Positions 2,218 to 48,661 are shown, counted from the stretch's first letter. The stretch: DNA of 64,000 bases from an uncultured virus (IMG/VR IMGVR_UViG_2740892251_000001) (IMGVR_UViG_2740892251_000001); one strand, 5' to 3'. Notes: generated by a model not told the origin, from the sequence alone. Numbers and translations are program-made.

Positions 2218-5200
2218 ATGAAATTATTTAACTACAAATTATCTTGTATCGCCTTAACTATTATATCTGCGATTAATACCACAACTTCTTATGCTGATAT
2301 CGGTTTTACAGGTGATGTAATACCTGACTTACCTGACTGGGATATTCCGGGGGTAATAATTGTTGGTAATACGTCATTTGGTGCTATGGAGATTTTCAAT
2401 AGTGGACCGGTGAACAGCGGAAATGGTGGAACGTTGACCAGCGGAAATGTAGCCGCTGGGCTATGGAGCTATATTGGCTATAGTTCTACAGCTACCGGTG
2501 AGGTAGTTATTACTGGCTCTGACTCTAAATGGATTAATAACGGAGTGCTCTTTGTTGGTTATAACGGTAACGGCACATTACAGATATTGGATGGTGGAGT
2601 GGTAAATAACCCTGTTAACGCGACACATGTTGGTTTTGGTGTTGGAGCTGTTGGTTATCTTGAAGTCAGTGGAACTGGTTCACAATTAACCAACGGCGGT
2701 GAGTTACGCATTGGTGGCGAAAATGATAGTAATGGCATGATGCGAATTACCGATGGTGCTGTAGTCACTAACCAAAATGATGCTGATATTGCGTATCGCC
2801 CAGGTTCAACCGGTAGCGTTGAAGTCACAGGTCCAGGCTCAATCTGGAATGCCGGTAATCGTATGTTCATCGGCCATGAAGGTGATGGCAGTCTTAAAAT
2901 CACCAATGGCGGCGTTGTTACCACGGCAACGAAAGCAAGCGTTGCGGCAGGAACTACTTCAACCGGTTATGTAGAAGTGAGCGGTGCAGGTTCCCGCTGG
3001 CAAGTGGGTACATTGCTTGATATAGGAACAAATGGCCCTGCCACTATGGTTGTTTCTGATGGTGGTGTAGTAGCCAGTCAAAGCGGGAATATTAATGACT
3101 CTATCGGAGTGGTAGAAATCACCGGCACCGACTCTCGTTGGGATAATGCCGAGACCCTACAAATTGGTTCATTTTACGCATCAGTAGGTTCTAATAGTAC
3201 TCTAAATATCACTAATGGTGGTGTTGTAACTGATAGTTTTGGTTATGTTGGTGCAGGAAAAGATGCCACTGGCCGAGTAAATATCTCAGGTACAGATTCT
3301 GCTTGGCAAAACTCTAACAGCTTGGTTATAGGTAACAATGGGAATGGCTCTATCGTCGTCTCCGATGGCGGGAGTCTCACTAGTTCTGGTAGCTATGTCG
3401 GCTATGCCGCTGGCTCAAAAGGTGACGTTTTGGTCACGGGTGTTAACTCCAATTGGGTTAACGCAGGTGATATTCGTTTTGGGGAGTTTGGCGGTAACGC
3501 CTCGCTGACTATTAATAACAGTGGGACTGTTCAAACCGATAATTTAACCATTGCTAAAGATGCAACTTCAACCGGAGTACTGAATATTGGTAGCGCAGCT
3601 AATTATACTGCGTCATCAGCCGGTTATATTAATACACCACTTATCACCTTAGGTAGCGGTGATAGCTCAATTGTCTTTAACCATATTGATACTGATTATC
3701 AGTTTAATTCTGCCATTGCTGGCAGTGGTAAAGTGGCAGTTTACAGTGGTATGACGGTACTAAATGGCGTAAATACCTATAGTGGTACGACAACAATTAA
3801 TGCTGGCACCTTAAAAGCTGGTGCAGCAAGCGGCTTCAGTGCAGCTTCTGAATATATTGTCGAGACTGCGGGGAAACTGGATTTAGCCGGTTTCGACCAG
3901 ACACTGAATAGTCTAAGTAATAGTGGTACTGTGAGCCTTAACGGTGCACCAGGTACGATTCTGACGGTATCTGGTGATTACATCGGCAATGACGGTTTGC
4001 TCAATTTTAACTCAGCACTCAATAATGATGCTTCAGTTACTGATAAATTAGTCGTTAATGGTAATACTGCTGGCACCACTCATGTGGCTGTAACTAACTT
4101 GGGTGGCAGTGGCGCGACGACATTAAACGGTATTGAGTTGATTAAAGTGAATGGACTGTCGGACGGTGAATTTATTAAGCAGGGACGTATTGTTGCCGGT
4201 GCGTATGATTACTCTCTGGCTCGCGGGGTAGGAACCAATGCGAGTAACTGGTATTTGACCAACGCAGTTGATCTTACCAACCCTGTTGAACCAGCATTAA
4301 TTATTGAACGTCCAGAAGTTGGCAGTTACACAGCTAACCTAGCAGTGGCAAATAATATGTTCGTCACGCGTTTACATGACCGTGTGGGTGAAACCCAATA
4401 TATCGATGCATTGACTGGCGAACATAAAGTAACCAGCATGTGGTTACGTAACGAGGGTGGTCATAACCGTTCTCGTGATACTTCGGGTCAACTGAGTACA
4501 CAGGCTAATCGTTATGTCGTGCAACTAGGGGGCGATATTGCCCAATGGAGCAATAACGATAAAGACGGTATCCGTCTGGGTGTTATGGCTGGGTATGGTA
4601 ACAGCAAAAGCACCACTGTTTCACAACTGTCCGGTTACAACGCAAAAGGGACGACTGATGGTTACAGCTTGGGCGTATACGGTACTTGGTATGCTAACGA
4701 AGCCGATAAATCTGGCTTATATGTGGACAGCTCTGCGCAATACAGCTGGTTCAACAACACTGTTGACGGTCAAAGCTTGGAAAATGAAGAGTACAAATCT
4801 AAAGGTGTGACTGCCTCTCTTGAAAGTGGTTATACCTTTAAAGTGGGTGAAAATGCAGCTAAGAATGCCACCTACTTTATCCAACCTAAAGCGCAGATTT
4901 CCTGGATGGGTGTTAAAGCTGACGATCATAAAGAAGCCAACGGCACTAATGTTTCTGGTGAAGGTGATGGAAATATCCAAACCCGTCTGGGTGTAAAAGC
5001 CTTTATGAATGGTTACAGCGATCTGGATAAGGGTAAAGACCGTGAATTCCAGCCATTTATTGAAGCAAACTGGATCCACAATACCAAAGATTTCGGCACT
5101 ACAATGGACGGAATGACCGTTAAGCAAGACGGTGCGGCCAATATTGGTGAGCTGAAAGTGGGTGTAGAAGGCCAGATAAATAAGAGAGTGAATATCTGGG

Positions 5201-5277
5201 GTAATGTCGGACAGCAAATTGGTAATAAAGGCTATAGCGATACTGCAGTGATGTTAGGAATTAAATATAACTTCTAA
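2218..5277 (+). CDS. Type Va autotransporter (AIDA-I/Yap-like) with beta-helical passenger repeats
   Basis: Signal peptide; about 7 repeats GxxSxW...LxIGxxGxGxLxIxxGGVV; pertactin-like junction TDKLVVNGNT...GAYDYSL; beta-barrel ending KYNF. Confidence 0.93.
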   Translation: MKLFNYKLSCIALTIISAINTTTSYADIGFTGDVIPDLPDWDIPGVIIVGNTSFGAMEIFNSGPVNSGNGGTLTSGNVAAGLWSYIGYSSTATGEVVITGSDSKWINNGVLFVGYNGNGTLQILDGGVVNNPVNATHVGFGVGAVGYLEVSGTGSQLTNGGELRIGGENDSNGMMRITDGAVVTNQNDADIAYRPGSTGSVEVTGPGSIWNAGNRMFIGHEGDGSLKITNGGVVTTATKASVAAGTTSTGYVEVSGAGSRWQVGTLLDIGTNGPATMVVSDGGVVASQSGNINDSIGVVEITGTDSRWDNAETLQIGSFYASVGSNSTLNITNGGVVTDSFGYVGAGKDATGRVNISGTDSAWQNSNSLVIGNNGNGSIVVSDGGSLTSSGSYVGYAAGSKGDVLVTGVNSNWVNAGDIRFGEFGGNASLTINNSGTVQTDNLTIAKDATSTGVLNIGSAANYTASSAGYINTPLITLGSGDSSIVFNHIDTDYQFNSAIAGSGKVAVYSGMTVLNGVNTYSGTTTINAGTLKAGAASGFSAASEYIVETAGKLDLAGFDQTLNSLSNSGTVSLNGAPGTILTVSGDYIGNDGLLNFNSALNNDASVTDKLVVNGNTAGTTHVAVTNLGGSGATTLNGIELIKVNGLSDGEFIKQGRIVAGAYDYSLARGVGTNASNWYLTNAVDLTNPVEPALIIERPEVGSYTANLAVANNMFVTRLHDRVGETQYIDALTGEHKVTSMWLRNEGGHNRSRDTSGQLSTQANRYVVQLGGDIAQWSNNDKDGIRLGVMAGYGNSKSTTVSQLSGYNAKGTTDGYSLGVYGTWYANEADKSGLYVDSSAQYSWFNNTVDGQSLENEEYKSKGVTASLESGYTFKVGENAAKNATYFIQPKAQISWMGVKADDHKEANGTNVSGEGDGNIQTRLGVKAFMNGYSDLDKGKDREFQPFIEANWIHNTKDFGTTMDGMTVKQDGAANIGELKVGVEGQINKRVNIWGNVGQQIGNKGYSDTAVMLGIKYNF

Positions 5278-5303
5278 TACTGGCTAAAAAATTATAGGTA
5301 AAC

Positions 5304-5328
5304 AGACCGGGCAATTAAGCCCGGTTTT
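5304..5328. terminator. Intrinsic terminator between convergent autotransporter and tail genes
   Basis: ACCGGGC-AATTAA-GCCCGGT-TTT. Confidence 0.75.
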
Positions 5329-5335
5329 GCTATCC

Positions 5336-5728
5336 CTATTCCGGCGCTGTCGGCCACCCAATATCCGGCGCAAGAGAAACATCAACGTTTTTCACTGCAA
5401 TACGGTATTGCTTCCACGCTTTCAAATCAGATCGCAGTTTATCTGGCACATCTTCTTCACTATCCACCAGCCCCTCAATCTCATCAGTAATAGCAGCAAT
5501 GATGTCCGATGCGTGAGATAAAATAGCCGTTTGCTTTTGCGTGACTTCAATAATCATCTGTTGCAGAACGCGCGGCGCGGGGCCAGGTAACCATTCGCCA
5601 TTTTCATCTGCGTAATAAGTTGGGTCTGGCCTGGGGCCATTCATTACAATGCATTTTTCCGGTAACTGAAACGTATCTGAATAGCTGATATATTCAACAT
5701 TAGTCCCCAACTCTGAGTATGTTCTCAT
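5336..5728 (-). CDS. Tail fibre assembly chaperone
   Basis: C-terminal LKAWKQYRIAV...DIGWPTAPE (Tfa-type motif); follows the tail fibre gene. Confidence 0.85.
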   Translation of the reverse strand: MRTYSELGTNVEYISYSDTFQLPEKCIVMNGPRPDPTYYADENGEWLPGPAPRVLQQMIIEVTQKQTAILSHASDIIAAITDEIEGLVDSEEDVPDKLRSDLKAWKQYRIAVKNVDVSLAPDIGWPTAPE

Positions 5729-5730
5729 GT

Positions 5731-7572
5731 TTAAGTCCCCAATCCATCAATTGTCCACACAGCAACTCTATAAGGGGCGGAGGTTATAGTGCTAGCCGAG
5801 GGGAATGAGTTAGCAGTCATTGCTGCTACATGCGCAACCCAAGTATTACCACTCCAGACGACGATATTATCCCCCCATGGTATAGCTAAAGCCCCTACTG
5901 ACACAGAGCCCGAACCAACGTTACTACCAAACCCTGCAACTCCCCATATCCCACCAAACTGGACTTCACATCGATAGTCTATTTTTCTGCCGATGAAGGG
6001 ATTATCCAGCACTATTCGCTGTGATAATCCAAGGGTGGCGGGTGCGACTGCGGAACCACCCGGATAAAGATATGTGAATTTTTGATGACTTTCGAGTGTA
6101 GCTATACGAGTTGATAACAATGTTATTTGAGTCGCTAGCTCCAGCGCATTTATTTGGCCTTCATTGAATGCAGCGCCAGCAAGTTTAATTACCCAGCAAG
6201 TTGTGACACTAAGTACACGGTTTTCATCTGCGACGAGGAACCCAGGGGATTTCGATGCATCAAACAGTAAATCTTTTGCGCCTATTGTTTGAGCATTAGT
6301 TCCCGCCGCCTTGTTGGTTGTGCCTTTTACAAAAGCCCCACCTAAAGTAGATATATCTAATACTAACCCTGTAGAGGGTGAAAACTCAAAGGAGCCAGTG
6401 ATATTCCTTGCCGCGTCCATTTGGAGTAACCCCACCGTCCCGGCAGATTTAACACCATCCCCTCGACCTACTGTAGCCCCTAATGAACCTGAGTATTTAC
6501 CGTTCTTATCTGGTACACGGAATGTTGTTGAACCATCCCCGCTAGAGAATTGACCTCGCTTTAAGGGATCTCCCAACCAGGCGGCGTCCGTAATGACAGT
6601 CCGTTTAGCTTGTATTGCTGCCCATGCATCTGGGAATAGCGCACGACTTAATAGCTGCCCATCTTGTGGGGCTTCACCTGCCTCAATATGGTCACGAGTG
6701 TCTGTCTGATACGAATGAAGTATAGGTAAACCGCCAGCTGGCTTTGCGTCTAACTGTTGCTTAGTGACTGCACCTTTCGGATCTGTGGCGTCACCGGCTA
6801 ATATTACCGGCCCTGTAAATGTGCCGCCTGTAGTATGCATAAGTAAATCGGGGTTAACGCTTTCAGCAAATTGTTCCGCTTCATCTCTGGCAGTAACTGC
6901 CCCATCTTTGCTTTGTGTAGCTATTGTTGCAGCCTCAGATGCAATCGATGCCGAATCTGTCGCCGCCGCAGCAGCATCGCTGGCTGTCGTAGCGGAACCA
7001 GAAGCCGATATTGCAGAACCTTCCGCTGCCGCTTCTGCTGACTGGGCCGCTGTCTTTGCCGCGACCGCTTCATCTCGTGCCGTTTCCGCCCCAGCTACCG
7101 CCTCTCCAGCGTTCTCTATCAGCTCCCTGTTATCATCAAACCACGTTTTCGAGTCATTAACCCATGCGGTCAGATCGCTCAAAGATGGAATAACCACAGT
7201 GGAACCATCAGGAGCAATAATGGTGACATCGCCTGTACCAGTGGTTATATCTTGCCAGTCTTCTAATAACTTCTGATATAAAGCCAATTGCACGGCTGTT
7301 CTACGCGCCAAGTCAGACATTGAATTTGATACAGTCGTGACAATTGCATATTCAGAATTGGTAATTGCTGATGTTAAATTCTTTGTTACTCTTATTTTAG
7401 TATCGCTATCGACAGCAAGTATTTCATATATTACAACCTGCCCAGAGCCAGGAATAAATATCATCTGCCCAGGGGCGATTCCAAATATTGGGTTATTCCA
7501 TAGCGTACCAACACCAGTAATCACATTTGTCCCAGCTACGGACGTGACTGTTCCTGCCTCATACCAAGACAT
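5731..7572 (-). CDS. Side tail fibre protein
   Basis: N-terminal WYxxGTV anchor, Ala-rich heptads, collar motif GDGSTTFRVPD. Confidence 0.88.
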   Translation of the reverse strand: MSWYEAGTVTSVAGTNVITGVGTLWNNPIFGIAPGQMIFIPGSGQVVIYEILAVDSDTKIRVTKNLTSAITNSEYAIVTTVSNSMSDLARRTAVQLALYQKLLEDWQDITTGTGDVTIIAPDGSTVVIPSLSDLTAWVNDSKTWFDDNRELIENAGEAVAGAETARDEAVAAKTAAQSAEAAAEGSAISASGSATTASDAAAAATDSASIASEAATIATQSKDGAVTARDEAEQFAESVNPDLLMHTTGGTFTGPVILAGDATDPKGAVTKQQLDAKPAGGLPILHSYQTDTRDHIEAGEAPQDGQLLSRALFPDAWAAIQAKRTVITDAAWLGDPLKRGQFSSGDGSTTFRVPDKNGKYSGSLGATVGRGDGVKSAGTVGLLQMDAARNITGSFEFSPSTGLVLDISTLGGAFVKGTTNKAAGTNAQTIGAKDLLFDASKSPGFLVADENRVLSVTTCWVIKLAGAAFNEGQINALELATQITLLSTRIATLESHQKFTYLYPGGSAVAPATLGLSQRIVLDNPFIGRKIDYRCEVQFGGIWGVAGFGSNVGSGSVSVGALAIPWGDNIVVWSGNTWVAHVAAMTANSFPSASTITSAPYRVAVWTIDGLGT

Positions 7573-37246: not shown

Positions 37247-37642
37247 TTACTTATTATTTAACATCGCCAAACACCCGTCAATAAACCCCTGAGCCGTCTG
37301 CATTTCTTTCCTGATTGTCCCATCCGAGCATTTACGCCTTTTAGCTATCATGCGTAGTGAAACACCAAACACATAGTGCAAAATCACCAGTTCATACTCT
37401 TCCGGTTTATACTTTTTCAGCCGTGCCACACAGCCATCAATCATAATGCCATCATCATCACAACACTGAGGCCGTGATTTATTGGTGTTCGGTAAGAGGC
37501 TTTTAAACCCAGCAGCAATAGGCTGCCAATCTACCTGGCTGTTATCACTGGCGACCCAAGCTCCCCAAAGCTCTAAAAGATAATGAATATCTAGTGTTGG
37601 CTTTTGATGTTGCTGCATTGAGTTGTTTTTCACTTGGTTCAT
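37247..37642 (-). CDS. Late antiterminator Q
   Basis: LELWGAW, AAGFK.LLP, CCDDDG, RKCSDGTIRK...GFIDG. Confidence 0.92.
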   Translation of the reverse strand: MNQVKNNSMQQHQKPTLDIHYLLELWGAWVASDNSQVDWQPIAAGFKSLLPNTNKSRPQCCDDDGIMIDGCVARLKKYKPEEYELVILHYVFGVSLRMIAKRRKCSDGTIRKEMQTAQGFIDGCLAMLNNK

Positions 37643-37923
37643 ATCTTGCCTTCCTTTCTCAATGCCGCCTGTGTGCGCATAACGCCCTCGGCGTGATATA
37701 GACGTGCCGTGTCACCATCAATTAAACGGGTGCGGCGGTCGCATTCGTCATGGCATGCACTACAGCCCCATGCGGCCTGCTCATCTGAGGGTTTAATTCC
37801 GGTACCGCAGGTTCCTGCCAGCCGATAATGCGTAAGTACCACGGTTTCAGGGTTGCCATTGCATACACCCGGAATACGGATCTGACACTCACGGCCCCTA
37901 GCCTCTTTGCGTAAATTAGCCAT
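37639..37923 (-). CDS. DUF1364/YbcO-family nuclease-like protein
   Basis: LRKEARGRECQIRIPGVCN...CSACHD. Confidence 0.85.
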   Translation of the reverse strand: MANLRKEARGRECQIRIPGVCNGNPETVVLTHYRLAGTCGTGIKPSDEQAAWGCSACHDECDRRTRLIDGDTARLYHAEGVMRTQAALRKEGKI

Positions 37924-39522: not shown

Positions 39523-39738
39523 TATCATCACCCTCTGGCTTGGTTACTGCATTATATTTCCCCTGCCACTCTAAACATTCCCGTTCGTAGTGCTTTGCTG
39601 TGCGCCGGTTTTATTGGCTGAGGCCACCAGCTCCGCTATACGATCAGCAATACTGTTTAGCACCTCACTTTCACGCGGTTCCACTCTCTCGGCCGCTGAA
39701 CGAATTGCAGCAATCATGCCATCGGTTGAAATATTCAT
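39515..39738 (-). pseudogene. Small gene with probable 1-nt deletion in an A-run (~39610)
   Basis: MNISTDGMIAAIRSAAERVEPRESEVLNSIADRIAELVASANK stops at 39571; the shifted frame ends TAA overlapping the next ATG. Confidence 0.5.
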
Positions 39739-39986
39739 TTGGTCTCGCCTCTGTGGTCTCTACGGTCACGCCAGTAATTTAAGCGCTGTTTAAAAAATTC
39801 CCGATAATGCACCGGTACCCGTTCAATCGCTTCCAGTACGTGGGCGCGGTGGGTTCTACGCTCGTATAGGTTTTTGATTAAGCCGCTGACTCTCAGATCA
39901 AGATTCTGTTTGTCCTGATATTCCTGAGGCCAGAGGCAAATGTTGTACGGGAGTCCGGGCGGGAGATAATCCGATTGCCCGACCAT
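39735..39986 (-). CDS. Hypothetical protein
   Basis: Coupled ORF; MVGQSDYLPPGLP. Confidence 0.7.
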   Translation of the reverse strand: MVGQSDYLPPGLPYNICLWPQEYQDKQNLDLRVSGLIKNLYERRTHRAHVLEAIERVPVHYREFFKQRLNYWRDRRDHRGETK

Positions 39987-39988
39987 GG

Positions 39989-40411
39989 TTACGCCCTCGA
40001 CTCAGCCGCCAGGCGTTTCATGATGTTGGGTTCGCTGGGGAGTGGCCCGGCTTTTACTTTGTTGAGTAGTTCCAGTCTTACCGGGGTATCTGCTTTAAGA
40101 ATGTGCTCAACTCTATCCAGTGGCATTTTTAGCATGACTGAAATACGTTGCGGGGAACGGCCAAGGCGCTGTAATTCATAAATACAGGTCATAACGCGGC
40201 GACCATAGCTAATACGGTTGCCGATTTTCACCATAGCACCATGTTCAATGACAGGTTCAGCCACCTTATCCAGCTTTGGTGCGGGAACATATGGGACACG
40301 CAGACGAGCGCGAGCTGCTTGATTGATACGATCAATTATTGCCGGGCCGTGGTCGCAGCCATCGTCAATTACCGGACGTTTTTCATTGATGTATTCATTG
40401 ATTGTATGCAT
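39989..40411 (-). CDS. Hypothetical protein with possible HTH
   Basis: LQRLGRSPQRISVMLKMPLDRVEHIL; GAGG RBS. Confidence 0.7.
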   Translation of the reverse strand: MHTINEYINEKRPVIDDGCDHGPAIIDRINQAARARLRVPYVPAPKLDKVAEPVIEHGAMVKIGNRISYGRRVMTCIYELQRLGRSPQRISVMLKMPLDRVEHILKADTPVRLELLNKVKAGPLPSEPNIMKRLAAESRA

Positions 40412-40454
40412 GGTCTTGCCTCTTTGGGTTAGTTCACTCGCTGGTCAGGCGCGA

Positions 40455-41828
40455 TTAAAATTTAGGTGTTGAATAACTCTTTTCTTTGGCCGGTGGCCTT
40501 GATGCCTCTTTCGCTATTCGGCTGGCTTCCTTTGCCACCAGCTGATCCACCGGCAGAAAGTGGCCGTTTTTAAATTCCTGATAAACGGTGCCGGGCTCGC
40601 CAAATCGGTTCTTGGTTACAATGGCCTCGGCAAATCTGGCCGCCGGACTATCGGCGTTATAAACCGCCTCTCGATACAACATAATGATGCTGTCAGCATC
40701 CTGCTCGATTGAACCGGAGTCTCTGAGATCGGAACTGATGGGCCTGCGGCTACCCGGTGGCCGTTCATCCACTTTGCGTGATAACTGGCTAAGGGCAAAA
40801 ATCGGGGTATTTATTCGACCGGCCAGTGTTTTTAAGCCGCGTGAAATGATGCCGACTGATAGATCATTACGCTCCGCCTTGGGTTTGGTAATCAGGCCAA
40901 GATAATCAACCATCACCATTCTTAATTGTGGGTACCGGCGCTTGTGTGTTTCGGCGATAGCCCGTATCTGATCGATGGTCAGTTCGCTGGCATCAACAAT
41001 CCAAATATCACGGCCATTCAATGCCTGTAGTGCGGAGTTAATGCGCGCCCAGTCCTCATCACATAAGGTTTTAGGGTCGCGCAATTTTGATACTGGCAAA
41101 TTACCGGCCCCGGCAACGGAACGCTCTACCATCTGTAGGGAAGCCATTTCCATACTGAATATCAGCGCCCCGCCGCCGTTCTGTGTGGCTCCCTCAACAA
41201 TCTTCAACGCAAACTCGGTCTTACCCATCCCCGGACGCCCGGCGATAACCACCAAGTCCTGCGGGTTAAAGCCACCGGTGATGGCATCCAGCTCAACTAT
41301 GCCGCTTTGCAGGTTCATTGACTCAATTTCACCATTCATGCGCTTATCCAGCATGTCCATATAGCCGGGCAATAAGTCATTTAGATGCACCGGGATAATG
41401 CCGCCGCTATCTGCCGTCATATCAATTAGCTGTGTTACCGCGCCCTGTATCACCTGATCGCGCTGTTCCTGATTGTTCGCCCCTCGGATGCCGTCAGCCG
41501 CGGTCTGAAATAATGCGGTCATGGTGCGGCTATACCAAATCTTACGGGCATAGGCGGCATAGCCTTTCAGGTTTGCCACGTTGCCCGGCATACGGACAAT
41601 TTCAGATAGCGTAGCCAGACTACTACCGCCCAGCGCCTCACTGACGAACAGGACATCGATCATCCCTTTGGTCAATGCCTGCTTTTTAATTTCCGCATAG
41701 GCAGAACGATAAATCCTGATGCTAAATGCCTCTTCCGGCAGAGTGGCAATAACCTCCAGCGCATCAGGGGTTGAGCCGCCATACAGCAGGCCGGATAGAA
41801 TGGCGGCTTCTAACTCTTGAGGTTTCAT
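40455..41828 (-). CDS. DnaB-like replicative helicase
   Basis: AGRPGMGKT, FSMEM, VDYLGL, LSQLSR, DLRDSGSIEQDAD, KNRFG. Confidence 0.96.
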   Translation of the reverse strand: MKPQELEAAILSGLLYGGSTPDALEVIATLPEEAFSIRIYRSAYAEIKKQALTKGMIDVLFVSEALGGSSLATLSEIVRMPGNVANLKGYAAYARKIWYSRTMTALFQTAADGIRGANNQEQRDQVIQGAVTQLIDMTADSGGIIPVHLNDLLPGYMDMLDKRMNGEIESMNLQSGIVELDAITGGFNPQDLVVIAGRPGMGKTEFALKIVEGATQNGGGALIFSMEMASLQMVERSVAGAGNLPVSKLRDPKTLCDEDWARINSALQALNGRDIWIVDASELTIDQIRAIAETHKRRYPQLRMVMVDYLGLITKPKAERNDLSVGIISRGLKTLAGRINTPIFALSQLSRKVDERPPGSRRPISSDLRDSGSIEQDADSIIMLYREAVYNADSPAARFAEAIVTKNRFGEPGTVYQEFKNGHFLPVDQLVAKEASRIAKEASRPPAKEKSYSTPKF

Positions 41829-42799
41829 AGCGCACCATCGCGGGTTTTTCTCAACACGTCCGGTTTCATCAAATAATCAAAATTGGCGCGCCAGTGGGAA
41901 CCATCATCACCACCGAAATAAAACACCGGAGCCTGTTCGCGGAACGCCTCGAAATAGCCCTGAAACGCTTCAAGGTCTTTGGTTTTGAGGTATTGGAGTA
42001 ATTCGCGGATAGCATGCTTACGGTCTTGATCGATTTCAGCCAGTGGCAAAACATCGCTGAACACACGGTTGTACGCAGCAATGACCGCATCGCAATCAAT
42101 CCGCCCTGCAGACTCAGACCATGCGCGGGCATCGGCCAGATAACCATCGAACCGATTCACGCGGCAGATATTCGCAGGTTTGGCATACTTGCCGTTACGG
42201 GGTTTCCATGTGCTAACCACCCAATGGGTCACCAATTGCAAATCAATCAGCGCATAGGCTTTGCGTGATTTGGTTGTTGTCAGCAAGATTTCAAATGGCC
42301 CAGGGTCTTCACATCGGGTGTGAGTGAGTTGGTTGTAATACGCCAACGCCCTTTCAGCGTCAGCGAGAATATTTTCAGTTCCCCCTTGAGGGGTAAGGGG
42401 TGTATTGGGATCTATGACTGATTCAAAAGAGTGACTGGTTCTGGGTGCAGCATTTGCACCACTGACCGGTGCACCGTTTGCACCAGAGGGTGCAGGAGAT
42501 TCACCATAGGGTGCAGCATTTGCACCAGCGGAATTTAAGCGCAGGTGATAAACATTTGAGCGATTTAAGCCATTTTCAGATTTACGCTCTTCAATCCTAA
42601 CCAGCCCATTTTTTACCAGTTTTTGGATATGATTCTGTACCGAGCGTTCGGATATTTCACACTGTTCGGCAATGTAGGGAACCGATGGCCAGCACTCGCC
42701 CTGATCGTTGGCATTGTCGGCTAATTTTATCAGTACCAATTTACGTAACGGGTTGCCAACTTTAATACTCATGGCCTTAGCCATTAGATTCATGCTCAT
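41825..42799 (-). CDS. Replication initiator (O-like, N-terminal HTH)
   Basis: KLVLIKLADNANDQGECWPS; C-terminal WRANFDYLM; internal iterons. Confidence 0.9.
   Translation of the reverse strand: MSMNLMAKAMSIKVGNPLRKLVLIKLADNANDQGECWPSVPYIAEQCEISERSVQNHIQKLVKNGLVRIEERKSENGLNRSNVYHLRLNSAGANAAPYGESPAPSGANGAPVSGANAAPRTSHSFESVIDPNTPLTPQGGTENILADAERALAYYNQLTHTRCEDPGPFEILLTTTKSRKAYALIDLQLVTHWVVSTWKPRNGKYAKPANICRVNRFDGYLADARAWSESAGRIDCDAVIAAYNRVFSDVLPLAEIDQDRKHAIRELLQYLKTKDLEAFQGYFEAFREQAPVFYFGGDDGSHWRANFDYLMKPDVLRKTRDGAL
42444..42526. repeat. Replication origin: four 17-bp palindromic iterons
   Basis: GGTGCA-N5-T(G/T)CACC at 42444, 42468, 42489 and 42510 (spacing 24/21/21) inside the initiator gene. 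Confidence 0.85.
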
Positions 42800-42801
42800 A
42801 G

Positions 42802-43026
42802 TCAGATCCCCAGCGCTGCGGCTATTTGCCGACAGGCAGACTGATAATCGTCGGGCGATAGATTCATCAGGCACAGGTCAGCTTTCTTCTGCTCGTACTG
42901 CTCCCACACGCTATATGCGGCTACCTGACGCCCGGCAAAAATAGGGGCGATGTCAGCCATACTTGCCGGTTGGCCGTTAAGCCGGAATCCGTTGCGCCAG
43001 GTGATTTTGTCGATAGATGTAAGCAT
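42802..43026 (-). CDS. Hypothetical protein directly upstream of the initiator
   Basis: 74 aa with GAGG RBS; stop 2 nt before the initiator ATG. Confidence 0.75.
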   Translation of the reverse strand: MLTSIDKITWRNGFRLNGQPASMADIAPIFAGRQVAAYSVWEQYEQKKADLCLMNLSPDDYQSACRQIAAALGI

Positions 43027-43042
43027 TGGTCTTGCCTCTGTT

Positions 43043-43507
43043 TTATACGGTGGTCAGCCGGTGGTGTTGTGGTCTGATTGCGTGAAGTGCCGCAACAGCG
43101 CCCGATATTCTTTGTGACATGTCACAGCCATCTAATAGAACCGCGCTAATTGCTGCGGCAAACTCTCGGCTGGCAATCGAAACCAAATAATTCACGGTCT
43201 CGCCATTCACCCTGGCCCGCCGTTCTGCCGGGAGTGCCGCTTTAAGTACCGGTGATAATTCCAAGACCTTGCGCATTGATGCTTTTGAATCCCCGCGCAG
43301 CCAACGAAATAACTGCTGCCGGTTGTTGTTAATAGACTTCCAATCAGCGCCGCCCTGCCCGTTTTCAATGGGAGTGAGACGAACTGAACCGGTGTTGATA
43401 TTGAGCAAGAAAAAAATTCTGCTGATCTCGATAGCTACATGCTCCTGCCCCCGCTCTGCCGCCCACGCCTGAACTTCGGCTTTAAGCGCTTTGATTTCTT
43501 GTTCCAC
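43043..43507 (-). CDS. CII-like regulator (YdaT-type)
   Basis: Position after cro; WAAERGQ..VA.EI, NRQQLFRWL. Confidence 0.75.
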   Translation of the reverse strand: MEQEIKALKAEVQAWAAERGQEHVAIEISRIFFLLNINTGSVRLTPIENGQGGADWKSINNNRQQLFRWLRGDSKASMRKVLELSPVLKAALPAERRARVNGETVNYLVSIASREFAAAISAVLLDGCDMSQRISGAVAALHAIRPQHHRLTTV

Positions 43508-43567
43508 GTTGCGTCTCCTGTCGCAGGAAATTGATTATTGATAATCAGATTTGTGAGTGGGATTTGG

Positions 43568-43753
43568 TTAGGCTGCACTTCGATACATAGCGGGGTCATA
43601 TTTCAGTTCGCCATGAGTCATGCGTTCAATCTTCATTGCCTGTTTCTCAGGGATAATTGCCCCCCAACGGCAAACCGCTGGGTGCTTTATGCCTAAGGCC
43701 GTGGCGGTATTCACTACCCCACCAAAAAACTTGACGACATCTTTCTTGTTCAT
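43568..43753 (-). CDS. cro: Cro-like repressor
   Basis: VKFFGG..TATALGI..PAVCRWG..IPE. Confidence 0.9.
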   Translation of the reverse strand: MNKKDVVKFFGGVVNTATALGIKHPAVCRWGAIIPEKQAMKIERMTHGELKYDPAMYRSAA

Positions 43754-43780
43754 AGGAACTCCTTGTTTAACTCAGGATGA

Positions 43781-43847
43781 AAGGTAACAAAAGGTACATG
43801 ACAATGCAAACACTTTTCACCTCACTATGGCGTAACATTGGTTACAT
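43781..43847. promoter_or_regulatory. OR operators and pR
   Basis: GGTAACAAAAGGTACAT and CGTAACATTGGTTACAT; minus-strand TTGCAT-17-TACCTT. Confidence 0.65.
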
Positions 43848-44508
43848 GAAAAATGAAATGAATGACCGCATCCGTCTTCGCAGACTGCAGCTAGATCTCA
43901 CACAAGTCCAGTTAGCCAAAGCTATTGGGGTGAGCCGTGTATCAGTGACAAAATGGGAGTCAGGAATCACTAAACCAGATGGGGAGAATCTTCACCGGCT
44001 GGCGCAAATACTTTCATGCACGCCAGAGTGGTTACTCTATGGTACCGGAGATTTACGTCAGGTTGACGATACAAAGATAAAGCCCCTCGTCGCAACGCCT
44101 AATGCCATACCTGTTATCTCATCCGTTCAAGCCGGTGCCTGGACAGAAACCTACTCCGCCGCCCGTATTTCTGATGTTCTTAGATGGTGTAACACCACAG
44201 TGAAGGTTTCTGAAAACGCATTTGGGTTGGATGTTCGGGGTGAATCAATGACCAACCCCAACGGTTCTCCCTCTATCCCCGAGGGGTCTACCGTTATCGT
44301 AGAACCTAATTATGGTTCTATTGATGATTTGTACGGTAAAATAGTGGTCGCCATTATTGATGGCAGCTCCGAGGCCACCATTAAAAAGTTAGTTATTGAT
44401 GGCCCCAACAAATACCTAATGCCTTTAAATCCCAATTTCAAACCCATTGAAATCAACGGCAATTGCCGTATTCTCGGTCGCGTTGTTCAGGTCACCCAAG
44501 ACCTGTAA
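43846..44508 (+). CDS. cI: CI repressor (HTH + S24 autopeptidase)
   Basis: HTH LTQVQLAKAIGVSRVSVTKWE; VQAG cleavage site; GESM and TIKKL; ATG at 43846 may be leaderless. Confidence 0.95.
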   Translation: MKNEMNDRIRLRRLQLDLTQVQLAKAIGVSRVSVTKWESGITKPDGENLHRLAQILSCTPEWLLYGTGDLRQVDDTKIKPLVATPNAIPVISSVQAGAWTETYSAARISDVLRWCNTTVKVSENAFGLDVRGESMTNPNGSPSIPEGSTVIVEPNYGSIDDLYGKIVVAIIDGSSEATIKKLVIDGPNKYLMPLNPNFKPIEINGNCRILGRVVQVTQDL

Positions 44509-44513
44509 TCAAT

Positions 44514-44539
44514 AGCCCATCCCCCTGATGGGCTTTTTT
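44514..44539 (+). terminator. cI terminator
   Basis: AGCCCATC-CCCCT-GATGGGCT-TTTTT. Confidence 0.85.
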
Positions 44540-44549
44540 ATGCCTCTAG

Positions 44550-44604
44550 ATGTAACTATTAGAACACTTCCTTATTGACACAAAAGGTAACTATAGGTAC
44601 ATTC
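44550..44604 (+). promoter_or_regulatory. pL promoter with OL operators
   Basis: TTGACA (44575)-17-TACATT (44598); operators TGTAACTATTAGAACA and GGTAACTATAGGTACAT match the OR motif. Confidence 0.8.
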
Positions 44605-44631
44605 CTCTCATCAACACGGCACAGCAGCCGA

Positions 44632-44695
44632 TGCGAACAGGCAGGACGCCCACGAAGTAGCTGCCGGTGGCATACGAAACACCGGATGATTCGCA
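44632..44695 (+). ncRNA. Structured pL leader RNA (multi-stem junction)
   Basis: TGCGAA/TTCGCA closing stem, GGC-AGGAC-GCC and CCGGTG-GCATACGAAA-CACCGG. Confidence 0.5.
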
Positions 44696-44750
44696 AGTTT
44701 AGGTTTAGTACGTTCTGGCAGCTGGGAAGACAGCACCAAATTACAGACGT

Positions 44751-44870
44751 AAAAAAACCCACCGAAGTGGGCTTCTTTACCCCGGATCACCGACCAAAGT
44801 TAACCGGGAATTGCTAACGGGGACCAACCCGTTAACAGAGGCAAGACCAACGGCTTACGCCATCGACCTT
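44751..44870 (-). ncRNA. Candidate multi-target antisense sRNA
   Basis: Four hairpins with GUAA, UUGGUC, UUUGGUC and UUCG loops, U7 tail, extended -10 upstream; complementary to RBSs of early genes. Confidence 0.75.
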
Positions 44871-44876
44871 AAAATT

Positions 44877-44885
44877 AGTATATCA
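44877..44885 (-). promoter_or_regulatory. Extended -10 promoter for the sRNA
   Basis: Minus strand TG-A-TATACT, about 7 nt upstream of the first hairpin. Confidence 0.65.
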
Positions 44886-44894
44886 GGAGTTGCT

Positions 44895-45230
44895 ATGACA
44901 GCACTACAGATAACCACCACGCTCTATATCCATGTTAATCCGCATTCAGCATTGCAAGATAATCGTTTTATCGTGTGTACCAGTGACATGTCACAGTCCG
45001 CGCCAGCCTATGCGTTACTCGAAACCCGCGAAATCACTCTGACGTTCGACGAACCCGATCCATTTGAAATCATCGGTAAGCAGGTTGATTCACTACGTGC
45101 TCAGAAAGAACGAGTCGCGGCGGAATCATATCGGCATCAGTTGCTAATTGATGATCAAATTCAGGCGTTGCTCTGCATTGAGCACACCACGCCAGCAAAC
45201 GTCTCTGACGATAGCGACATTCCTTTTTAA
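44895..45230 (+). CDS. Hypothetical early protein
   Basis: AGGAG RBS; IDDQIQALLCIEH; ends DDSDIPF (SSB-like acidic tail). Confidence 0.75.
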   Translation: MTALQITTTLYIHVNPHSALQDNRFIVCTSDMSQSAPAYALLETREITLTFDEPDPFEIIGKQVDSLRAQKERVAAESYRHQLLIDDQIQALLCIEHTTPANVSDDSDIPF

Positions 45231-45285
45231 TTAGCCCTACATCAAAGACCAAGATCCGTTTAAAAAACAAAGAGGCAAGACCAAC

Positions 45286-47487
45286 ATGACTGTATTTATT
45301 TGCTTATTCGAGCCGAAAAAAGCGGCTGTCAAAAATGGGGCTATCCCATTGGTTATAGCGCTGGAAGCTATCAATAAGAAAATGGCATCCGCACTGGCCA
45401 TCGCTAAATTGTGGGAAGCCTACCCAGCCGCTGGCGATAACTTTGCTGATCCGAAAATCTGTGAGGATACCGTCGGGCAACCGCGCCCTGTGGTTGGTGA
45501 GTTCGACGAACAGTTCGCACAGGAGAATACTTTTGATGGCAAAGTATGGACGCCAAATACTGCGGCATTGTCAGAAGATGATGATGATGAGAACGACGAC
45601 GAACCCGCTGATGATGCCCGTTTAGTGAACTACGCCAAACTGGGCATCGATGTCAAAGTTGGCAAAATCCTAATGTATGACTTACGTGACATCGATACGC
45701 ACGAACTATCACTGGTATATGACCTGGTTAACGACGATGAGGGTGATGCCGGGCTACGTTCCATTATAACCGCGTTAGCAGGCATACCGGCTATAGGAGC
45801 AATGTACCAAGAATCAGTCAAAGAGCTGATCGACGCTATCAATATGAAATTCCCGAAAACACCTCAATTCCCAGAAGTTCGAAAATTCGCTCAAAAATGG
45901 GTTGATGAACCTAATAAGCGGGACGAGTTAACCGGAGCGAAAAAAGTCACCCGCATAGATACACCGGCCCCTGATGCGCCAATTAAACGCAGCTTTGAAC
46001 ACACATATAAAACGCTTGATCTCGAAGTTGCCCTCGCCCTGGTACCGGCTGATTTTAACTGCTGGGAAATCCATTCAGCAGAAATGAAGCAAGCAAAAGA
46101 GTTGATGGACAGTAATGATGATGCCTGGCGCAAATGGTCAACCGAATTACGCGTTCGTAGTGATGCGTTGTCTATTCCGCGTGAAACTATCTTTGAGATC
46201 ATTCGCGTGGGTAAAAAGAAACCTATCTTCCTGACCAATGCCGCCGCCAGAAAAGAATTTATCGCACAATGTATCGCCGTCAAAGGGCCACAGCCTGCGG
46301 TTAAAAATTTGGGGGACGGTAAGTTCTCTATTGATGGTCTGGTCGGTGGTGAACCCCAACCGGCGGCAAACAGTGAAACAAAACTGGCACTGGTTGCCAA
46401 TTCTGAGCCAGAAACTGAAACAAAACCGCCAATCGTTGCAACAGAACAGGAAAACCCCGCACAGGAACCCATCACCGATAACACCGCTCAACAGGCTAAA
46501 GAAACCCTAGAACAGTTGGGTTACAGCGTTTATGCCTCGGCTGATGAGAAGCCGGCAGAGGTTATTGATACGGCGCAACCAAGCACGGTTGCTAGCGTAG
46601 AAGTTACTGTTGATGAGTTCCAACACCGTGCCGGGTTGATTGAGCAAGAGATTGCGCAGAAGTCCCCTCAGGAACAAGAAAACCTGCATATCTGGAAATC
46701 GGTACAACGCACCGATCCACGCTTTACCAAACCTGTAGAGGGCGCGGGATATGTCGCTACCAGCATTAACGCTGAATATATGTTTATGCGGGCCACAGAA
46801 GTATTCGGCCCCATCGGTGAGGGTTGGGGCTATACCATTCTTGAAGAAAAGATGCTGCCAGGCGCGCCAATGTCCGAGGCTATTTACGACGATAACAAGA
46901 AATACATTGGCAACCGGCTTATTCGTGATGCCGATGGCACATTGATATGCGAACAAAATCACTCAATCAAAATTCAATTCTGGTATTCAATTGAGGGAGA
47001 AGTACGTGGCGAGATCGAAAGCTACGGAGCCACCCCTTACATGTATAAAACCAATAAAGGAATTAAGGCTGATAACGAGGTAATCAAAAAAAGCCTCACG
47101 GACGCCATTAAGAAAGCGCTATCTATGCTGGGCTTTAGCGCTGACGTATGGCTCGGCATGCACGATAACCCCGAATATATAGCAGAAAATAACATTGAGT
47201 TTGCTATCAAAAATGCCAGTGAAAAAGCCGGTGACTCCGTTCGCCTGCGCAAAGAGCTGGATGAGAAATTAACCAAAGTCGGCAATACCATTTCGAATGC
47301 CGTTACCACCAATGAAGTGAATAAGATATATAGCACCATTACGCGAGAAATCGACGTACACCGCAAAGATGCCGACGCCAAAGCTGACAAAGAATACGCC
47401 AATTACCTCAAAAACCGCCTGCTTGCATTACATCGCTTAACCGAACAACGGGTTGCCAAACTTAACGCACAGGAGCAAACAGCATGA
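45286..47487 (+). CDS. RecE-like N-terminal region fused to a Rad52/Sak-like annealing domain
   Basis: HTYKTLDLEVALAL (RecE N-region-like); RATEVFGPIGEGWG and KKSLTDAIKKALSMLGFSADVW (Rad52/22-like). Confidence 0.7.
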   Translation: MTVFICLFEPKKAAVKNGAIPLVIALEAINKKMASALAIAKLWEAYPAAGDNFADPKICEDTVGQPRPVVGEFDEQFAQENTFDGKVWTPNTAALSEDDDDENDDEPADDARLVNYAKLGIDVKVGKILMYDLRDIDTHELSLVYDLVNDDEGDAGLRSIITALAGIPAIGAMYQESVKELIDAINMKFPKTPQFPEVRKFAQKWVDEPNKRDELTGAKKVTRIDTPAPDAPIKRSFEHTYKTLDLEVALALVPADFNCWEIHSAEMKQAKELMDSNDDAWRKWSTELRVRSDALSIPRETIFEIIRVGKKKPIFLTNAAARKEFIAQCIAVKGPQPAVKNLGDGKFSIDGLVGGEPQPAANSETKLALVANSEPETETKPPIVATEQENPAQEPITDNTAQQAKETLEQLGYSVYASADEKPAEVIDTAQPSTVASVEVTVDEFQHRAGLIEQEIAQKSPQEQENLHIWKSVQRTDPRFTKPVEGAGYVATSINAEYMFMRATEVFGPIGEGWGYTILEEKMLPGAPMSEAIYDDNKKYIGNRLIRDADGTLICEQNHSIKIQFWYSIEGEVRGEIESYGATPYMYKTNKGIKADNEVIKKSLTDAIKKALSMLGFSADVWLGMHDNPEYIAENNIEFAIKNASEKAGDSVRLRKELDEKLTKVGNTISNAVTTNEVNKIYSTITREIDVHRKDADAKADKEYANYLKNRLLALHRLTEQRVAKLNAQEQTA

Positions 47488-47984
47488 GCAATACAGCTAT
47501 CGCATTAGCCGCAGACCTTTTCAAACTGCAACAGTTGGTTGAGTCCTCAGAGGAACTCACGCCAGAAATGATCGCCGATACGCTGGAGGGTTTAGAGGGG
47601 GCTTTGGGGGATAAGCTGGATGCAACCTATGTCTTTGTTCGTAACCTTGAGGGCCAGGCTAAAACCTGTGATGAGGAAGCTAAACGCCTGGCTGACCGGA
47701 AAAGGTCATTCGAGAATCGGGCCAAATCGATCAAACAATACGTCCTTAACTGTTTATTGGCCGCAGATAAGAACACACTTAAAACGCCGTATAACACATT
47801 CACCGCGCGTAAAGGTGTGGCCAGTGTGGTGATCGACAATGAGGATTTATTGCCCAGTGAATTGGTGACAGTGCAAACCACCGTAGCGCCCGATAAAAAG
47901 GCCATCAAGGAAGCCATAGAAAATGGTGTTGATGTTAAAGGTGCGCATATCGAGATAGGTAGCCGTAGCCTGCAGGTTCGCTAA
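47484..47984 (+). CDS. Siphovirus Gp157-family protein
   Basis: IADTLEGL, EAKRLADRKRS.EN, PDKKAIKEAI..G..V.GA. Confidence 0.9.
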   Translation: MSNTAIALAADLFKLQQLVESSEELTPEMIADTLEGLEGALGDKLDATYVFVRNLEGQAKTCDEEAKRLADRKRSFENRAKSIKQYVLNCLLAADKNTLKTPYNTFTARKGVASVVIDNEDLLPSELVTVQTTVAPDKKAIKEAIENGVDVKGAHIEIGSRSLQVR

Positions 47985-48029
47985 TTTCATCCCGCCCCAA
48001 ACCAACGGGGCATTACTGAGGCAACACCC

Positions 48030-48212
48030 ATGCTAAAGCGTACTCACAAACGCGGTGAAAAGTCCTATATCACGCTCCCCGATGGACGAACGGGAACTAT
48101 CCACACTGATCGCCGTTGTGATGTTCACTACGATTTTCCGGTAGATGTTCGAATTAGCAGCACTCCACCGCAGAAAGCACCCGAAAAATTGATTTTGCAT
48201 AATCAGAAATAA
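48030..48212 (+). CDS. Small protein, possibly CsrA-like fold
   Basis: ML..T.K.GE...I.......P.DVRI pattern; GAGG RBS. Confidence 0.55.
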   Translation: MLKRTHKRGEKSYITLPDGRTGTIHTDRRCDVHYDFPVDVRISSTPPQKAPEKLILHNQK

Positions 48213-48261
48213 TCAACCTGCCCCGCTAGCATGGTGGAAATCCAACACCAGGGAAACCACC

Positions 48262-48468
48262 ATGCAGCCATGGCAACCGGGCAAGCGCCTATTAACCGAG
48301 TTCGATATTAAGATCGGCAAGTTATCAGCCAGCGTACGGAAACAACAACTCACCGACCACGATATACAGCGGGCCTGTTCTGCGACCGACAGAGCAATAA
48401 CCCAAATGATACAGGGGCAAGACCATGAAAAACGACCACGACATAATCACCAAAGAGGAGATGATTGA
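48262..48468 (+). CDS. Hypothetical protein
   Basis: MQPWQPGKRLLTEFDIKIGKL; operon position. Confidence 0.6.
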   Translation: MQPWQPGKRLLTEFDIKIGKLSASVRKQQLTDHDIQRACSATDRAITQMIQGQDHEKRPRHNHQRGDD

Positions 48469-48661
48469 GTTGACCGGTCATCACTACAAAACCAAACAAT
48501 GTGACTCTTTACGCCGCTCGGGGATCTTTTTTATCCGACGTCCGGACGGACACCCGAAAACCACTTGGGGCCATTTTTTGAATCCAGTCAGTTTGCGCGG
48601 TAAGCCGCTGGATCCGGAAAAAGAAGAACCCAATTTCGAGGCCATGAACAGTGGCCGGTAA
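48425..48661 (+). CDS. xis: Excisionase (DUF4224-like)
   Basis: ITKEEMIELTG...KQC..L...GI.F..RPDG.P..TW...EPNFEAM; overlaps int. Confidence 0.85.
   Translation: MKNDHDIITKEEMIELTGHHYKTKQCDSLRRSGIFFIRRPDGHPKTTWGHFLNPVSLRGKPLDPEKEEPNFEAMNSGR

Follow-up and report, generated by a model that had tools for sequence, protein, structure and literature searches.

A tag repeated at early-gene starts of a ZF40-like prophage and its complementarity to a predicted IsrB-type small RNA

IsrB-1 and IsrB-2 of the Salmonella Typhimurium prophages Gifsy-2 and Gifsy-1 were detected as RNAs of 88 and 94 nt, antisense to flanking genes beside sbcA, and the accessible parts of their description report neither a target nor a function (PMC2330248). 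The start-associated sequences of Cluster K mycobacteriophages (SAS/ESAS) are asymmetric, contain a Shine-Dalgarno core and precede the ATG of many non-structural genes; whether a host or phage RNA or protein is their partner 'remains to be determined' in the words of the authors (Pope et al. 2011, PMC3203893). Phage lambda encodes PreS (LPR1), which depends on Hfq and acts on many targets; the studied ones, in the accessible part of the report, are the host genes dnaN and alaS (bioRxiv 10.1101/2024.10.31.621285). Here we describe a locus of an uncultured virus, IMGVR_UViG_2740892251_000001, within a stretch of 64,000 nt that is called the window throughout; all window coordinates are positions in this full stretch. 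Its early region repeats a short sequence, the tag, at start codons, and a predicted small RNA of the isrB family carries the complementary sequence, the anti-tag or seed. From sequence comparison we consider it reasonably probable that this one IsrB-type small RNA represses the tagged starts. A comparable masking is reportedly known from c4 of phages P1 and P7: according to what is ascribed to Citron and Schuster (1990), this RNA masks the ribosome-binding region of phage messages, so that lytic functions are off in the lysogen. The c4 classes are said to differ by matched base changes in RNA and targets, and c4 is said to be processed from the target's own transcript and to act on one operon.

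A ribosome-binding-site motif shared by dispersed early genes and matching the small RNA had been listed in the original prediction, which a model made from the sequence alone; its coordinates, counts and match lengths were all reproduced, and its interpretation is partly supported. With up to one mismatch, GAGGCAAGACC occurred seven times in the 64-kb window against 0.77 expected, none of 100 shuffles reached seven, and no eighth match was found anywhere in the 64 kb. Reference for the matches was the plus-strand copy at 44834-44851, AACAGAGGCAAGACCAAC. The repetition is far beyond chance and the observation is confirmed. Six of the seven copies stand 0-3 nt before start codons of early genes, the seventh lies opposite the small RNA gene (Table 1). 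All six start-linked tags have the mRNA sense and are shared equally between the operons, with three in the rightward one (minus strand) and three in the leftward one (plus strand). The tagged open reading frames (ORFs) match phage protein families or occupy conserved slots (phrog_2465, phrog_4183, the 55-aa ORF, phrog_2489, phrog_2482 and phrog_1266). The tag of the 55-aa ORF sits inside the 3' end of the upstream theta-like gene. The phrog_2482-type gene bears an exact tag in 16 relatives, though a weak one in the window, and the membership of the Q-like start in the tag set is doubtful at best. The RecE-like exonucleases of the window and of Pectobacterium phage ZF40 are 45 % identical as proteins, and both genes have kept the tag. 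In two whole Yersinia genomes carrying related prophages, six of nine and five of six exact copies were in the early region (5-8 kb), the four copies outside the prophages were not at gene starts, and a reversed-pattern control gave no copy.

Across 60 gene-start groups the conserved block was AGAGGCAAGACCAA, that is AGAGGCAAGACCA(A), with flanks below 0.4 bits; the flanks alone are informative in this comparison, because the 11-mer core was the selection criterion. The gap between core and ATG was 1 nt in 40 and 0 nt in 12 of the 60 groups, and the GAGG within the tag is at ideal spacing. Like SAS, the tag lies near the ATG of different gene families, is conserved across subclusters and is essentially absent from the host genome, as far as the accessible account of SAS goes (PMC3203893). 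An asymmetric Shine-Dalgarno motif at 3-7 nt from the ATG and rare in the host is present here; the SAS consensus in a Cluster K phage is not. SAS differs in sequence (GGGATAGGAGCCC), host phylum and phage type, and no cognate RNA is given for SAS in the accessible text of that paper, whereas a complementary RNA accompanies the window tag. The tag works like SAS but is no member, the phage being an enterobacterial lambdoid, ZF40-like one. The discussion of the SAS paper also draws a comparison with the 13-bp asymmetric stoperators of Cluster A mycobacteriophages (PMC3203893), and the motif might likewise be a DNA site at which a repressor-type protein blocks transcription. The tag is indeed asymmetric, runs with transcription on both arms and is limited to the early regions. 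However, the repeat around the pL-like promoter, GTAACTAT(A/T)AG, is unrelated to the tag, and in 164 of 174 tag copies from 32 related contigs the ATG follows within 0-4 nt, a fixed short distance that points to translation rather than transcription. We regard a DNA site as very improbable.

The minus-strand RNA matched the Rfam family isrB (RF01386) over 44752-44833 with 38.4 bits at a gathering score of 35. It lies antisense beside a recE/sbcA-type gene (the exonuclease gene from 45286, plus strand) in a lambdoid prophage. Its membership in isrB is borderline. The window RNA and IsrB both lie backwards in the early-left operon next to this type of exonuclease gene, and they share the loop CUUUGGUCGG of the second stem-loop (SL2) and a U-tailed terminator. 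The window RNA has in addition a 5' hairpin (SL0) and the anti-tag, while IsrB measures 88-94 nt and the Rfam model begins just 3' of the anti-tag. A fold of -56.2 kcal/mol (z = -5.85) was predicted for the 121-nt RNA, and the same four hairpins were predicted for all 33 unique variants from relatives. Their mean energy was -51.6 kcal/mol versus -34.9 for the reverse complement, as expected of a G-U-rich fold that is present on this strand only. In an alignment of 20 sequences 94.5 % of the cells were paired versus 30-48 % with the partners slid, and changes on both sides occurred in 14 of 33 pairs, including eight of nine in SL1; 0 of 500 shuffles reached the observed values. These folding models mark the minus-strand RNA as a genuine structured element. 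The 12-nt seed core UUGGUCUUGCCU was invariant in 20 of 20 aligned variants. Seven of nine pairs in SL0 vary on the 5' arm only, opposite the seed, so that the seed arm stays fixed. UUGGUC is the conserved loop of SL1 and recurs within the loop of SL2; its UUGG fits the YUNR U-turn motif, which is reportedly a feature of fast-pairing antisense RNAs (Franch et al. 1999). Relatives hold TATACT, TAAAAT or TATAAT at an equal distance from the first base of SL0. The RNA gene is convergent with the pL operon and meets the transcripts of the pL-like promoter head-on. That the element is transcribed is suggested by its homology to IsrB.

Binding of this RNA to 195 translation starts of the window was predicted with dimer partition functions that include the opening costs of RNA and mRNA structure. 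The five strong tagged starts rank right after the trivial cis overlap and are the best trans binders among the 195 starts, the best of all being the start of the 74-aa gene (Table 1). The best start without a tag had -12.8 kcal/mol at a median of -3.2 kcal/mol. The weak site before the 60-aa gene fell clearly short of the strong ones, and the Q-like start is within the tail of the non-tag sites.

Table 1. Tag copies, parts of the predicted small RNA and promoters in the window, with the predicted net binding of the small RNA to tagged starts
Feature	Coordinates	Strand	Remarks	Net binding (kcal/mol)
Predicted small RNA, ~121 nt	44750..44870	-	Rfam isrB match and fold; 5' end presumed	
SL0, 5' hairpin, G-U-rich	44870-44843	-	predicted fold	
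Unpaired GCCUC	44842-44838	-	predicted fold	
SL1, loop UUGGUC	44837-44812	-	predicted fold	
SL2, loop UUGGUC inside conserved CUUUGGUCGG	44809-44780	-	predicted fold	
Terminator hairpin with U-run	44779-44750	-	predicted fold	
Putative promoter -10 (extended), TGnTATACT	44877..44885	-	from reading the sequence TGATATACT; start near 44870	
Seed (anti-tag) UUGGUCUUGCCUCU	44837..44850	-	plus strand is AGAGGCAAGACCAA, the seventh tag copy, followed by ACG, not ATG	
Tag, 17/17 match	43026..43042	-	start of 74-aa gene 42802-43026 (phrog_2465), directly before the O-like initiator	-21.3
Tag, 15/15 match	45271..45285	+	start of 733-aa RecE-like exonuclease gene 45286-47487 (phrog_2489)	-20.1
Tag, 13/13 match	40411..40423	-	start of 140-aa gene 39989-40411, first after the DnaB-like helicase	-15.3
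Tag, 16 nt with one A-to-G	39739..39754	-	start of 55-aa ORF 39571-39738, no family	-16.2
Tag, 15 nt with one A-to-G	48411..48425	+	start of excisionase gene 48425-48661 (phrog_1266)	-18.7
Weak tag GAGGCAACACC	48018..48028	+	start of 60-aa gene 48030-48212 (phrog_2482)	-7.6
Partial match AGGCAAGA	37644..37651	-	before Q-like antiterminator gene 37247-37642	-10.8
pL-like promoter	44575-44603	+	TTGACA, 17-nt spacer, TACATT; 10/12 matches in promoter scan; 3' of the cI-like gene	
111-aa gene in cis (phrog_2479)	44895..45230	+	own AGGAG and ATG overlap the small RNA promoter, not the RNA	

The tag and the RNA occurred together in the relatives. IMG/VR was scanned with a C-type 15-mer, GAGGCAAGACCAATG, and with an A-type pattern, GAGGAAAGACCAATG; the first 80 loci of each scan, comprising 43 and 57 contigs, respectively, were examined, the contigs being grouped from the scan tables. 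The RNAs were recognised with a final, looser pattern that includes variants with short U-runs or odd loops. In the C-type scan 32 of 43 contigs had at least three tag copies and all 32 had the RNA, which was found in none of the 11 contigs with one or two copies. At least three A-type tags were present on 24 of 57 contigs, 21 of them with an RNA of the U-type seed. The three A-tag contigs 'without' RNA hold the right arm of the early region only and end short of the place of the RNA. Thus the RNA was present in 53 of 56 multi-tag contigs of both types, and none of the 53 assessable ones lacked it. Phages that keep the motif without the small RNA, which would have spoken against the proposed recognition, were sought and not found in this set. 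The only two-tag contig of phage origin (L214) was considered as an RNA-less phage and rejected, since it is a deletion remnant in which int-xis-gam is joined to ninB-Q. Searched via the RNA, 30 IMG/VR loci and two Yersinia loci had five to eight tag copies each and together 22 distinct tagged N-termini. In ZF40, GAGGCAAGACC (in one copy GAGGCAAGATC) stands before xis, gp05, the exonuclease gene, gp13, gp16 and gp18, and UUGGUCUUGCCU is part of the RNA of this phage; among cultured phages, the gp13-like gene is common only to ZF40 and two Stenotrophomonas phages. The complementarity between tag and small RNA is real, conserved and tied to the presence of the RNA. Most relatives, though not the window or ZF40, have an extra tag copy away from a start, in the pL leader beside hairpins. 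For the variant-B RNA no match was found in 50,697 phage records or 5,426 E. coli genomes.

A sister clade altered the tag and the seed together. It includes the Stenotrophomonas phage vB_SmeS_BUCT708, which has the same gene order as the early region of the window. The tags of this clade read GAGGAAAGACC and the RNA seed UUGGUCUUUCCU; for the A/U class in BUCT708 and 21 contigs the pair is GGAAAGACC and GGUCUUUCC. BUCT708 itself has GAGGAAAGACC or GGAAAGACC at five starts (an xis-like gene, an exonuclease-like gene, a 37-aa ORF, a gp13-like gene and the gene after dnaB), and its RNA, with the same four-hairpin fold, reads CAUUGGUCUUUCCUCU. Thirty-two contigs were of the C/G class, 21 of the A/U class and none was mixed. 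Predicted binding was stronger within than across classes, with -18.3 versus -11.2 kcal/mol for the window RNA and -13.3 versus -10.8 kcal/mol for the BUCT708 RNA. This concerted switch argues, at the level of sequence, for a trans factor that reads the tag, either an RNA or a protein. The two matched classes, C/G and A/U, occur naturally and amount to ready-made compensatory mutants, so that the system can be tested directly. One further IMG/VR contig (L061) carries an IsrB-like RNA at 6100-6260 with the seed UAUUGGUCAGAACUC as well as three copies of GAGTTCTGACCAAT, two exact and one with a single mismatch (7250, 9427, 11197); they stand at gene borders, only one of them at an ATG. A scan for this type, which doubles as negative control for the multi-copy scans, gave more than 120 single chance matches and no second contig with several copies; as a third tag class L061 is an anecdote. 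In three A-type contigs (L516, L552, L554) the tag also precedes genes further right with the N-termini MTKHIGVKLINA and MSEAKPQDGSTV, so the tagged set is larger in some relatives than in the window. The gp13-like 73-aa gene of BUCT708 is labelled 'adenylate cyclase' in its record, a label that looks wrong because PHROG and Pfam give the window homologue no such function.

Two features of a trans-acting small RNA were found: a seed with an invariant 12-nt core and with matches of 13-17 nt, perfect or with G-U pairs, at five starts, and joint change of seed and targets. According to the mechanism that we propose, the minus strand from about 44870 to 44750 encodes an IsrB-type RNA that would run counter to the early-left (pL) operon and be made from a promoter of its own, in the manner of Salmonella IsrB in lysogens. 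The tag AGAGGCAAGACCA(A) would supply Shine-Dalgarno sequence and spacer to one start in cis and, in trans, to five strong starts besides one or two weak ones. Pairing would begin at the unpaired GCCUC and the UUGGUC loops, then open the weak G-U-rich 5' hairpin and span Shine-Dalgarno sequence and AUG on every tagged message, so that ribosome entry is blocked. The stop of the 74-aa gene is 2 nt ahead of the likely start of the O-like initiator, whose gene overlaps the helicase gene; the exonuclease gene heads the recombination block, and the excisionase gene lies directly ahead of int. Since the tagged genes stand at the head of translational units, an RNA expressed by the lysogen could turn down the replication, recombination and excision functions of the resident prophage together, and probably those of incoming phages of the same tag class. 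On induction, the burst of pL and pR transcripts would outnumber the RNA. In most relatives, the extra leader copy of the tag could act as a titrator of the RNA or link it with antitermination. Ribosome-site masking with matched classes of specificity, proposed for the window RNA, would resemble what is said of c4. The window RNA differs in being convergent antisense and in having a target that recurs at five to eight scattered starts across both early operons. A match to RF01695 (C4 antisense RNA) was not found in the window, and the RNA is no member of that family.

Several observations weigh against repression by the RNA. The RNA of one relative (L163) scored 33.4 bits, under the RF01386 threshold, and that of ZF40 had no match at E up to 0.1; RF01386 matches at this level were also absent from L061 and lambda. 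A simple sigma-70 scan did not list the RNA promoter, which has a -10 element alone and no good -35, and because of this the RNA start near 44870 is a presumed one. In the predicted fold, eight of 14 seed bases take part in the pairs of SL0, and only the five of GCCUC are free. On a tree built from 53 unique RNA bodies without the seed, the seed type changes a single time (Shimodaira-Hasegawa-like approximate likelihood ratio support of 96 for the U-type clade), hence one inherited event and not repeated covariation. Among 38 IsrB-like RNAs in 80 loci, repeated exact 10-mer complementarity within the own locus was found for the window type (L066) and L061 only, and multi-site complementarity as a general trait of IsrB-like RNAs was rejected. 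The claim that A-to-G deviations of the tag favour RNA recognition was not supported by the wider data: 19 wobble-compatible and six pairing-breaking transitions, besides 12 transversions, are not a significant bias over the 7:4 expected from base composition, and the G positions of the tag are under Shine-Dalgarno constraint as well. Of 24 RNA-seq runs, three raw-read ones of the same species label gave 4, 0 and 1 reads, all on a 62-nt module of the leader, and a metatranscriptome gave one contig over 44742-45007 with 21 differences and the strand not recorded. No transcript of the RNA was thus seen, but the raw-read runs do not contain the phage and are no test of its expression.

A further objection arises from the tag copy opposite the RNA. 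As this copy is itself a tag, the RNA is antisense in cis to one tag, and complementarity to the remaining tags comes automatically; both this complementarity and the apparent covariation would arise even with an RNA acting in cis only, if the tags were kept uniform by something else such as a protein or translation. On such an explanation the tags would be start-associated sequences held uniform by a protein or by a good initiation context, and the RNA would be antisense only to a leader ORF and the phrog_2479 gene, its match to other tags being a by-product of little effect. The original prediction had noted the copy at the RNA locus as the only one away from a start codon. This is correct for the window, where ACG follows; as a different kind of copy it did not stand, an ATG following in most lineages. 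In 34 Yersinia-type and ZF40-type loci the copy is followed by ACG in 29, by no start in three and by an in-frame extension in two. Elsewhere it opens a 4-codon ORF (variant B), an in-frame extension of the downstream gene (variant E; such extensions comprise 13-15 codons) or, in the A/U clade, an out-of-frame upstream ORF. These ORFs fit an action in cis, as do the ideal spacing of GAGG in the tag at gaps of 1 or 0 nt and the predicted sequestration of half of the seed in SL0. Moreover, a concerted change of the tags would carry the seed along passively, other IsrB subfamilies appear to act in cis only, and the authors of the SAS paper left open an RNA or a protein as partner (PMC3203893). 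However, the 12-14 nt block opposite the RNA is unchanged where the start codon is lost (29 of 34 with ACG, three without a start), which was counted for the RNA. Pfam gave no family match for eight small early proteins and for the exonuclease only one below threshold, so no candidate protein emerged. A perfect duplex of 13-17 nt exceeds the seed length of most characterised small RNAs, and over Shine-Dalgarno sequence and AUG it would make cross-pairing hard to avoid, and an effect is to be expected, if the RNA is made. The net energies remain at -15 to -21 kcal/mol after SL0 is opened. We consider action in cis only rather unlikely, though a serious alternative.

Mosaicism is evident at several tagged positions. 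In relatives, the slot after the helicase gene holds ORFs of differing N-termini and lengths (126/127/132, 140 and 159 aa, compared by N-terminus and length only), each of them tagged. The N-terminus MNISTDGM behind the tag of the 55-aa ORF is common to eight ORF lengths (55, 74, 83, 108, 113, 115, 125 and 168 aa) and points to a mosaic joint lying a few codons into the gene. The pL leader of the window has been replaced by the 62-nt module common to ST64B, SfV and SfII, and the phage has its own RecE-like exonuclease. All four observations suit tags that serve as recombination linkers in the sense of Susskind and Botstein, at module borders and kept uniform by exchange or gene conversion, which would be compatible with the RNA model. 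A short identical border sequence with different cassettes was found accordingly, but not its independence from the complementary RNA (0 of 53 contigs without RNA). A length of 11-17 nt is short for homologous exchange. The block also stops exactly at the start codon and always has the mRNA sense, and linkers give no reason for a single-base class switch that reached every copy and the RNA, or for the copies away from starts beside the pL leader hairpins of relatives. Tags as linkers are in our view improbable. Repression of the tagged starts by the small RNA, if true, would give IsrB-type prophage RNAs a function and start-associated sequences, whose function has been open since 2011, a concrete mechanism.

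Phage early programmes are usually credited to repressors and antiterminators. An RNA at the tagged starts would add a post-transcriptional layer to the control of lysogeny, possibly with superinfection immunity. More tentatively, and as a possibility that we hold to be less than even, tag and anti-tag RNA may constitute a layer of immunity based on RNA and divided into specificity classes (C/G, A/U and, in L061, a third one). The prophage RNA would then silence the tagged starts for replication, recombination and excision in its own genome and in incoming phages of that class. Altering one base in the seed and in every tag would create a new, mutually blind class, comparable to c4 of P1 and P7 but extended over a whole early programme, and in relatives the leader tag beside boxB-like hairpins would let the RNA interfere with antitermination or be titrated when pL fires. 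Neither the tag nor its RNA was found described in a literature search, and the strings 'motif', 'ribosom' and 'small RNA' do not occur in the genome paper of ZF40 (PMC3391216). In lambda, an isrB-like match and a tag of this kind are both absent; a link of lambda PreS or of the svsR paper to this RNA family was looked for and not found.

The lambdoid early region comprises 37.2-49.7 kb of the window according to the ORF list and PHROG families. ZF40 is the only cultured phage that resembles it in DNA and has the same gene order; related prophages were found in Yersinia artesiana and Y. frederiksenii. The cI-like repressor gene (44508 is its end, 43777 its start, plus strand), identified by PHROG, is followed by a terminator and then by the pL-like promoter. 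The leftward operon on the plus strand consists of the 111-aa gene, the gene of the 733-aa RecE-like exonuclease, a Mu Gam-like gene, small ORFs, excisionase and integrase. The rightward operon on the minus strand contains cro-like and cII-like genes, the 74-aa gene, the O-like initiator, the DnaB-like helicase, the 140-aa gene, the theta-like gene, small ORFs, NinB, an HNH gene and the Q-like gene. The annotated ORF of ZF40 gp08 (4919-5407 in the ZF40 record L001, GTG start) crosses the small RNA gene. It is more likely that this homologue of the 111-aa gene starts at an ATG about 200 nt further in, and the small RNA gene of ZF40 is hidden beneath a gp08 annotation that is probably over-long.

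The pL leader of the window includes the mentioned 62-nt stretch (44633-44696, plus strand), which is 85-96 % identical to unannotated intergenic DNA of ST64B, SfV, SfII, Yersinia YeP1-3 and phages of Klebsiella, Citrobacter and Aeromonas. In one metatranscriptome it occurred in many different contexts, and one contig omits the stretch exactly. It had no Rfam match and its fold was not unusual; it may be a mobile leader module, e.g., an antitermination RNA. Just before the small RNA terminator, the leaders of the window (44721-44734, plus strand) and of four relatives (L121, L163, L166 and L484, the last being BUCT708) contain hairpins of the types GCUG-GGAAGA-CAGC, GCCCG-GAAAGA-CGGGC and CCGG-GAAAGA-CCGG. 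By eye they resemble the boxB of lambda. In the A/U clade the core of these hairpins, GGAAAGACC, is identical to the tag, so the RNA seed would pair with the hairpins too. The terminator hairpin of the small RNA (44758-44771) was terminator-like in the scan on the plus strand also, with the tail CTTCTTT, and may be a weak two-way terminator, to be read through by pL transcripts.

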